Below are positions 32,497 to 32,811 of a DNA stretch of 64,000 nt, piece by piece. Where the stretch lies: NCBI GenBank assembly GCA_951406725.2, contig OX597817.1, positions 170,624,001 to 170,688,000 on the forward strand. The letters run 5' to 3'. The position numbers were made by a program, and so were the translations under genes. The notes under the pieces are model-generated. The model did no database searches and had not been told where the DNA came from. It saw nothing but the letters and a program-made list of their open reading frames with translations. The stretch is from Octopus vulgaris. Its lineage: Eukaryota. Every line of letters begins with the position of its first letter. Position 1 is the stretch's first letter.

Positions 32497-32811
32497 AAAT
32501 TGATCAAAATAAAAACATGATGCGAAGGACTCAGCGGTACATATGTTTCGGGCCTTTATAGACAGATTTATGCATAATGTATGTCTGTGGCCTTCTTCAG
32601 CCGCGCACAACAGCTTCCACAAGGACATGTGTTGTGCGCGGCTGAAGAGCCACAGACATATTATGCATTGTTATAAATCTGTCTAATAAAGGCCCGAAAC
32701 ATATGTACCGCTGAGTCCTTCGCATCATGTTTTATTTTGATCAATTTACTCCACCACCTACACCACCAAACGGTATACACAGGTGCTTATAATTATCAAG
32801 TACTACCATTT
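32497..32811 (+). mobile_element. Fold-back cassette with two hammerheads in (TA)n
   Basis: Arms 32497-32612 / 32630-32747; hammerheads 32534-32604(-) and 32638-32711(+): GCGG-CTGAAGA-(AG)GCC...GGCCC-GAAAC-ATAT-GTA-CCGC. Confidence 0.9.

Follow-up and report, generated by a model that had tools for sequence, protein, structure and literature searches.

The locus at positions 32496-32811 of the window (the whole 64,000-nucleotide stretch of Octopus vulgaris DNA that was analysed) is very probably the 3' end of a Penelope-like element (PLE), with its hammerhead but no protein gene, inserted recently as a head-to-head pair of copies in a (TA)n microsatellite. The repeat family has an architecture already described in print; the locus is most likely one of its ordinary stumps and as such a real feature of a known kind. 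Taken alone the locus is of little weight. Its value is that of a test case, and the pattern of differences between its two arms is the part worth attention.

Self-alignment delineates two inverted arms on opposite strands, 32496-32612 (117 bp) and 32630-32748 (119 bp), which align over 112 columns with no substitutions and five gap events. The alignment score of 183 compares with at most 26 in 200 dinucleotide shuffles, and the full inverted repeat folds at -195.8 kcal/mol (z -29.6). The inverted arms, a hammerhead core on each strand and (TA)n on both sides had been described in the original prediction and were borne out by the alignment and a motif search. As read from the sequence, the TA runs cover 32472-32497 on the left and 32811-32917 on the right, and a target site duplication is unreadable within the TA repeat. 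The element is asymmetric: a 63-bp tail with an AC-rich start (32749-32811, + strand) lies outside the arms on the + side only, a feature that the original prediction did not mention, and family contigs reach 32808 in all four public sequencing runs compared. The main copy (32630-32811, + strand) is a 5'-truncated terminal repeat, or pseudo-LTR-like end, consisting of the hammerhead, a 3' segment and the tail. The inverted tail-less copy (32496-32633, - strand) includes the apparent spacer between the arms, which is the upstream sequence of the same copy. In its - strand reading the spacer is family sequence: contigs lying on 32613-32633 extend past 32633 with different letters (five in run X1, three in X5 and none in X14 or X4, among the loose ends listed). 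In the orientation of the - copy the spacer also has 11 bases in common with a related element, in its upstream part at 12377-12415 (four bases in the other orientation), a match that was reached in none of 5000 shuffles. The two copies overlap by 4 bp (TGTT/AACA, 32630-32633), as seen both in the sequence and in the loose ends of the family contigs. Neither copy contains the other; the - copy extends further 5' and the + copy 63 bases further 3'.

Of the criteria used for PLE (EN+) insertions, those present at the locus are an inverted 5'-truncated copy adjoining the main copy, a tail at one end, a type I hammerhead in the terminal repeat and an AT-rich or microsatellite target. PLE insertions have been described as having an inverted 5'-truncated copy, a tail at one end only and a bias towards microsatellites (PMC8557442), and 5' truncation, an adjacent inverted copy, a one-end tail and simple-repeat targets make up the PLE form in two accounts (PMC3846280; PMC8557442). 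[quoted passage not shown] With EN+ PLE insertions so characterised the octopus locus shares the 5'-truncated end with its inverted copy, the one-end tail and the AT-rich/microsatellite target (PMC8557442; PMC3846280; PMC11167929). A short overlap at the inverted junction is a further shared feature, 15 bp long in rotifer Pen2a and 4 bp at the locus. The locus differs from them in having no ORF of its own and none linked to it, and in carrying its extra 5' sequence on the tail-less copy. Its tail of 63 bp is longer than the 30-40 bp given for PLEs (PMC8557442). Pfam searches with 150 of the 188 filtered frames of the window gave no reverse transcriptase (RT) or GIY-YIG matches, and five frames had weak matches below the curated cut-offs. 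The repeat family may already have been catalogued. An annotation of octopus repeats lists Penelope families, and the word "hammerhead" is absent from the accessible part of that source (PMC13282606). Among the matches listed in a literature search on hammerhead ribozymes in octopus, none described the family of this locus.

Both arms carry a type I hammerhead motif. That of the + arm spans 32638-32711 (+ strand), with a predicted cleavage site 3' of 32707, and that of the - arm spans 32534-32604 (- strand), with a predicted site 3' of 32538. A motif search, together with constrained folds, located the core boxes, the A15.1-U16.1 pair and the NUH site (GUA) in both arms. By motif search the arms also agree in stem I (GCGG/CCGC), in the two core boxes and in the AUAU loop, which were claimed from the outset to be identical in them, and the cleavage site proposed on the + strand, after 32707, agrees with the predicted one. 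The further claim of two canonical hammerheads holds for the core letters but not for helices I-III, which are non-canonical, and there is damage in the + arm, at the stem II base. Helix I has 4 bp (GCGG/CCGC), helix III amounts to a single pair with a palindromic loop, and helix II, long and irregular, takes up a region of 44-47 bases with large internal loops at this locus. In canonical animal motifs helix I measures 6 bp and helix II 4 bp (PMC4209133), dimensions that neither arm has. In PLE hammerheads helix I has been reported to be shorter and helix II longer, A9 is followed by an additional base, helix III is palindromic, and motifs occur in opposite-strand pairs 100-700 bp apart (PMC4209133). 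The short helix I, long helix II, palindromic helix III and opposite-strand pairing of the octopus motifs are shared with these minimal or variant type I hammerheads (PMC4209133; PMC6765202). The extra base after A9 is present in the - arm, whose junction is of the family type, the first core box being followed by an additional A, and in the family, whereas the + arm lacks the two bases directly 3' of this box, having lost the extra base along with one G. These form one of the two 2-base deletions in helix II of the + arm, the one at its base; the - arm has 6- and 1-base deletions in distal helix II. Rfam models gave no matches at the gathering score over the whole window. At E≤10 there were nine matches on the locus, none of them a hammerhead, and seven of the nine were miRNA hairpin models, which were taken as hairpin artefacts. 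A metagenome scan with an 18-base core pattern returned three loci that had only 18-19 bases in common with it and lacked the first core box upstream in the printed context; they were set aside as chance matches.

The G10.1-C11.1 pair that closes helix II is missing from the free fold of both arms, and forcing it costs 4.6 kcal/mol in the - arm and 7.0 kcal/mol in the + arm (net +1.0). Free folds of single arms were no better than those of shuffles (z -1.57 to +1.10, seven sequences). The 8-base palindrome of helix III self-pairs at -7.0 kcal/mol, which is in line with cleavage as a dimer (reviewed in PMC6765202). An intramolecular dimer between the two arms was rejected, as the motifs are on opposite strands. 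In the anole, a PLE hammerhead cut only in the presence of its protein (PMC11167929). Because the ribozymes point outward on opposite strands, a transcript arriving from either side makes the antisense arm first. Forcing the hammerhead fold in such read-through RNA costs 91.5 and 92.9 kcal/mol, compared to 7.3-8.5 kcal/mol in single arms. With the antisense arm made first and the fold at this cost, cleavage at the locus is predicted to be absent. Both ribozymes are thus predicted to be inactive here, and the modelled read-through RNA would be trapped in a hairpin of about 92 kcal/mol.

A self-contained non-autonomous element with two working ribozymes, comparable to a retrozyme, or a MITE in which long TIRs are combined with duplication of a TA target would also present two intact cores, terminal TA and a family of many contigs, but either is very unlikely. 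The animal non-LTR retrozymes resemble the locus in being non-coding, in carrying a type I hammerhead and in their kinship with PLE ends; they are, however, defined as tandem units, whereas the locus is a single head-to-head, inverted pair (bioRxiv 10.64898/2026.07.22.740005). The window has only two inverted copies of the motif and no tandem units, on which ground a tandem retrozyme was rejected. No single RNA can contain both motifs in the sense orientation. Among the joints listed for the four runs none connected an end to a start, a weak argument as the contigs are short. A MITE bounded by TIRs was likewise rejected, for the tail lies outside the inverted repeat, unlike in a MITE, and in the family it runs 63 bp past the right arm.

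The locus belongs to a repeat family with many variants, as seen in contigs of four public runs (X1, X5, X14 and X4) out of at least 24 listed. In these runs 1397, 494, 92 and 48 contigs, respectively, were aligned to 32613-32811, i.e., to 199 of the 315 bases, and depth in these alignments does not equal copy number; 32 aligned pieces and 24 loose ends were listed individually. Among the runs listed (at least 24) none had half of the 16 sampled words of the locus and none was an RNA run, and neither result was used as evidence. The family contigs add 13 letters upstream of the locus sequence. Compared to the family majority, the copy in the window has one listed substitution, and age therefore does not explain its deletions. 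At 32715 (+ strand) both arms have G where the family has A, which accounts for 99.29, 99.67, 99.99 and 90.38% of the depth in the four runs. That a base so rare in the family is found in both arms implies that the arms came from one source or were homogenised later. The state of the T-run is polymorphic across the family (38% of the depth in X5, 0.8% in X1, 7% in X14 and none in X4). After 32733, contigs leave the reference into (TA)n (62 in X1, 33 in X5 and 10 in X14, among the loose ends listed), while others carry the tail to 32808, so that tailed and tail-less ends both recur. As a separate observation, the tail was continued differently after 32804 in six contigs of X1, four of X14 and one of X4 (among the loose ends listed), and a joint from 32804 to 32755 in X1 hints at a tail made of a unit of about 53 bases that can repeat (32755-32804).

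Three further TA-flanked hammerhead ends of the same build, here called elements B, C and D, are present in the window. Element B (12295-12620) is a head-to-head pair of a related family, tail-less and TA-flanked, in whose - arm the 3' half of the ribozyme is missing. Its arms differ by three substitutions and two gaps in 103 aligned columns, and both gaps are in stem II. Element C (20343-21166) is an inverted pair with 171-bp arms, a 365-bp spacer and a tail of about 118 bp. The arms of element C differ by one substitution, which breaks the helix III palindrome of the + arm, and one T-run slip, and the right end of its spacer continues the tailed copy. Element D (14713-15035) is a solo tailed copy of the element C family, also TA-flanked. 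Helix I pairs in all of them despite different sequences (GCGG/CCGC, GCAG/CUGC and UUAG/CUAA), helix III is palindromic in five of the six intact motifs, the two of the main locus included, and stem II ranges from 44 to 60 bases across the hammerhead families of the window.

The five gaps between the arms of the main locus lie 19, 30, 37, 55 and 100 bases from the junction. According to the original prediction all arm differences were small indels in stem II. They are all indels and four of the five are in stem II, but the one at 100 is a slip in a T-run (32516/32729) 3' of the ribozyme and outside that stem. Since the stem II region makes up 38-39% of the arm, four of five is not a significant excess (binomial P 0.07-0.08). 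The proposed comparison of each arm with family variants was run on the contigs, and it assigned the loss of 2+2 bases to the + arm (the inner gaps, at 19 and 30) and of 6+1 bases to the - arm (the outer gaps, at 37 and 55). In stem II every one of the four differences is a locus-private deletion, two in each arm. Relative to the + arm, an insertion at 32647-32648 is present in all the spanning depth of X5, X14 and X4 and in about 94% of that of X1, and a 2-base insertion at 32655-32659 is present in most or all of it. Loose ends before 32660 read like the - arm in 14 contigs of X1 and 13 of X5 (among the loose ends listed), and in X4 a 70-base contig aligns to 32631-32696 without substitutions and with four gap letters. 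Where the - arm lacks its 6 and 1 bases, no deletion rows of at least 4% were found in deeply covered bins, and clipped contigs could hide some.

These results bear on the two explanations offered originally, that stem II is a mutable expansion zone or that the arms derive from two different family RNAs. In their favor, four of the five differences are in stem II, the stem varies between 44 and 60 bases across the families of the window, and both gaps in the aligned part of element B are there too. As first formulated they are nevertheless most unlikely. All four differences are losses with respect to the family, the listed stem II variants of the family have one length, and the excess in stem II is not significant. 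Two unrelated family members as templates are rejected by the presence of the family-rare G32715 in both arms. A narrower form survives, in which two separate cDNAs were made from one source RNA or from sister RNAs; it fits the data, and we infer it from the facts that neither copy contains the other and that the deletions are reciprocal.

The absence of substitutions is itself unusual. In dispersed repeat pairs of 70-95% identity from the same window, indels make up 7.2-8.8% of the differences, a comparison in which BLAST pairs lean to fewer gaps and in which two pairs above 95% identity give two indels among six differences. The probability that all five arm differences are indels is about 2e-6 at an indel share of 7.5% and 3e-4 at 20%. 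Given the share of 7-9% among the older repeat pairs, five indels out of five need a cause, which may be two reverse-transcription products, slippage after insertion or sequencing error.

The last of these causes is a real possibility: the element would be the same, but the four stem II deletions would be long-read consensus errors in a tight hairpin, and the true arms would be nearly identical to the family. All five arm differences being indels, against 7.2-8.8% in the repeat pairs of the window, is what this explanation would lead one to expect, and the single listed substitution against the family majority makes the copy too young for deletions acquired by age. Inverted duplicates are known to cause missed bases in nanopore reads (PMC7229812), and in three of the four runs all the depth spanning 32648 has the insertion that is missing from the + arm. 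Such errors are harder to reconcile with the expectation that reads of each strand should read one arm well. A clean loss of six bases is also not known as a usual form of consensus error. Gapless repeat pairs of 150-230 bp are numerous in the window, which shows only that indels are not a general weakness of the assembly. Rare variants are lost from contigs, and the missing deletion alleles consequently prove nothing. Should the deletions not be real, the locus would warn of false indels in assembled palindromes with short spacers.

Two routes to the inverted pair can be weighed. Self-priming has been proposed as the explanation of inverted junctions (PMC3846280), and fold-back of one cDNA at the 4-bp overlap, with deletions arising in the copied arm or by slippage and the centre inverted later, would produce the same element. 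The overlap flanks a 17-base loop, which is a good geometry for fold-back, and G32715 in both arms fits as well. However, fold-back of a tail-primed cDNA would assign the loop to the tailed copy. That is the arrangement in element C, but at the locus the loop is on the tail-less copy. Fold-back also passes the deletions of one arm to the other, whereas here they are private to each arm. The + deletions are inner and the - deletions outer, so a single inversion of the centre would gather all of them in one arm and transfer the loop to the tailed copy, but this is an extra event, and 5 of the 16 patterns of four deletions allow such a rescue by chance. On balance we regard fold-back as somewhat unlikely. 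A mixed route, with fold-back for the inner part and a second cDNA for the outer part, fits too. Were the reciprocal deletions confirmed as real, comparison of the arms over many stumps would separate fold-back from two-end priming without purified protein.

The step with two cDNAs is quite possible, without reaching the level of the probable. Against it count the support from one locus, the chance that the deletions are sequencing errors, the spacer of element C, which goes with the tailed copy as simple fold-back predicts, and the self-priming explanation of inverted junctions (PMC3846280). A fuller scenario can be outlined around this step. An element-encoded RT/GIY-YIG protein, acting in trans, would cleave the TA run on both strands. 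Reverse transcription primed by one of the resulting ends at the outer start site would yield the tailed + copy, and priming by the other end at the inner site would yield the tail-less - copy, with one RNA or sister RNAs of one source copy as templates. Both cDNAs would stop shortly past the hammerhead, and the TGTT/AACA overlap would serve to join them. Cleavage by the hammerhead of the parent element would take place in dimer form, via its palindromic helix III. On the most far-reaching reading, which we consider unlikely, the locus would be the fossil of a twin-primed Penelope integration, in which two separate, deletion-prone passes of reverse transcription over the same structured hammerhead RNA were spliced at the 4-bp overlap. 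In L1 twin priming both target ends prime cDNA, and joining at microhomology gives an inversion; the L1 cDNAs copy different parts of the RNA, whereas those at the locus would copy the same 117 bases. A literature search on twin priming and Penelope, judged by titles and the beginnings of abstracts and with subscription papers and supplements outside its reach, found none on PLE inverted repeats. From 2023 onward, among the matches listed, only one paper dealt with the mechanism of PLEs (PMC11167929). The formation of Penelope inverted repeats is named as unresolved in PMC8557442, and if the twin-priming reading is true, private deletions, the rare base and loop orientation would together provide a genome-wide read-out of that process.

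A few other features of the window can be mentioned. Two frames, 10461-10910 (+ strand) and 23381-23833 (- strand), which by eye we take to be a fragment resembling a Tc1/mariner transposase and a C-terminal LINE fragment, respectively, have no Pfam matches at E≤0.01. An inverted pair at 45919-46406 is 85% alike over 164 bases, and the pattern used here found no hammerhead in it. Short hammerhead-like motifs lie at about 3588-3621 (+ strand) and 37653-37620 (- strand), near TA runs, the distance between the first core box and GAAAC being 17-19 bases.
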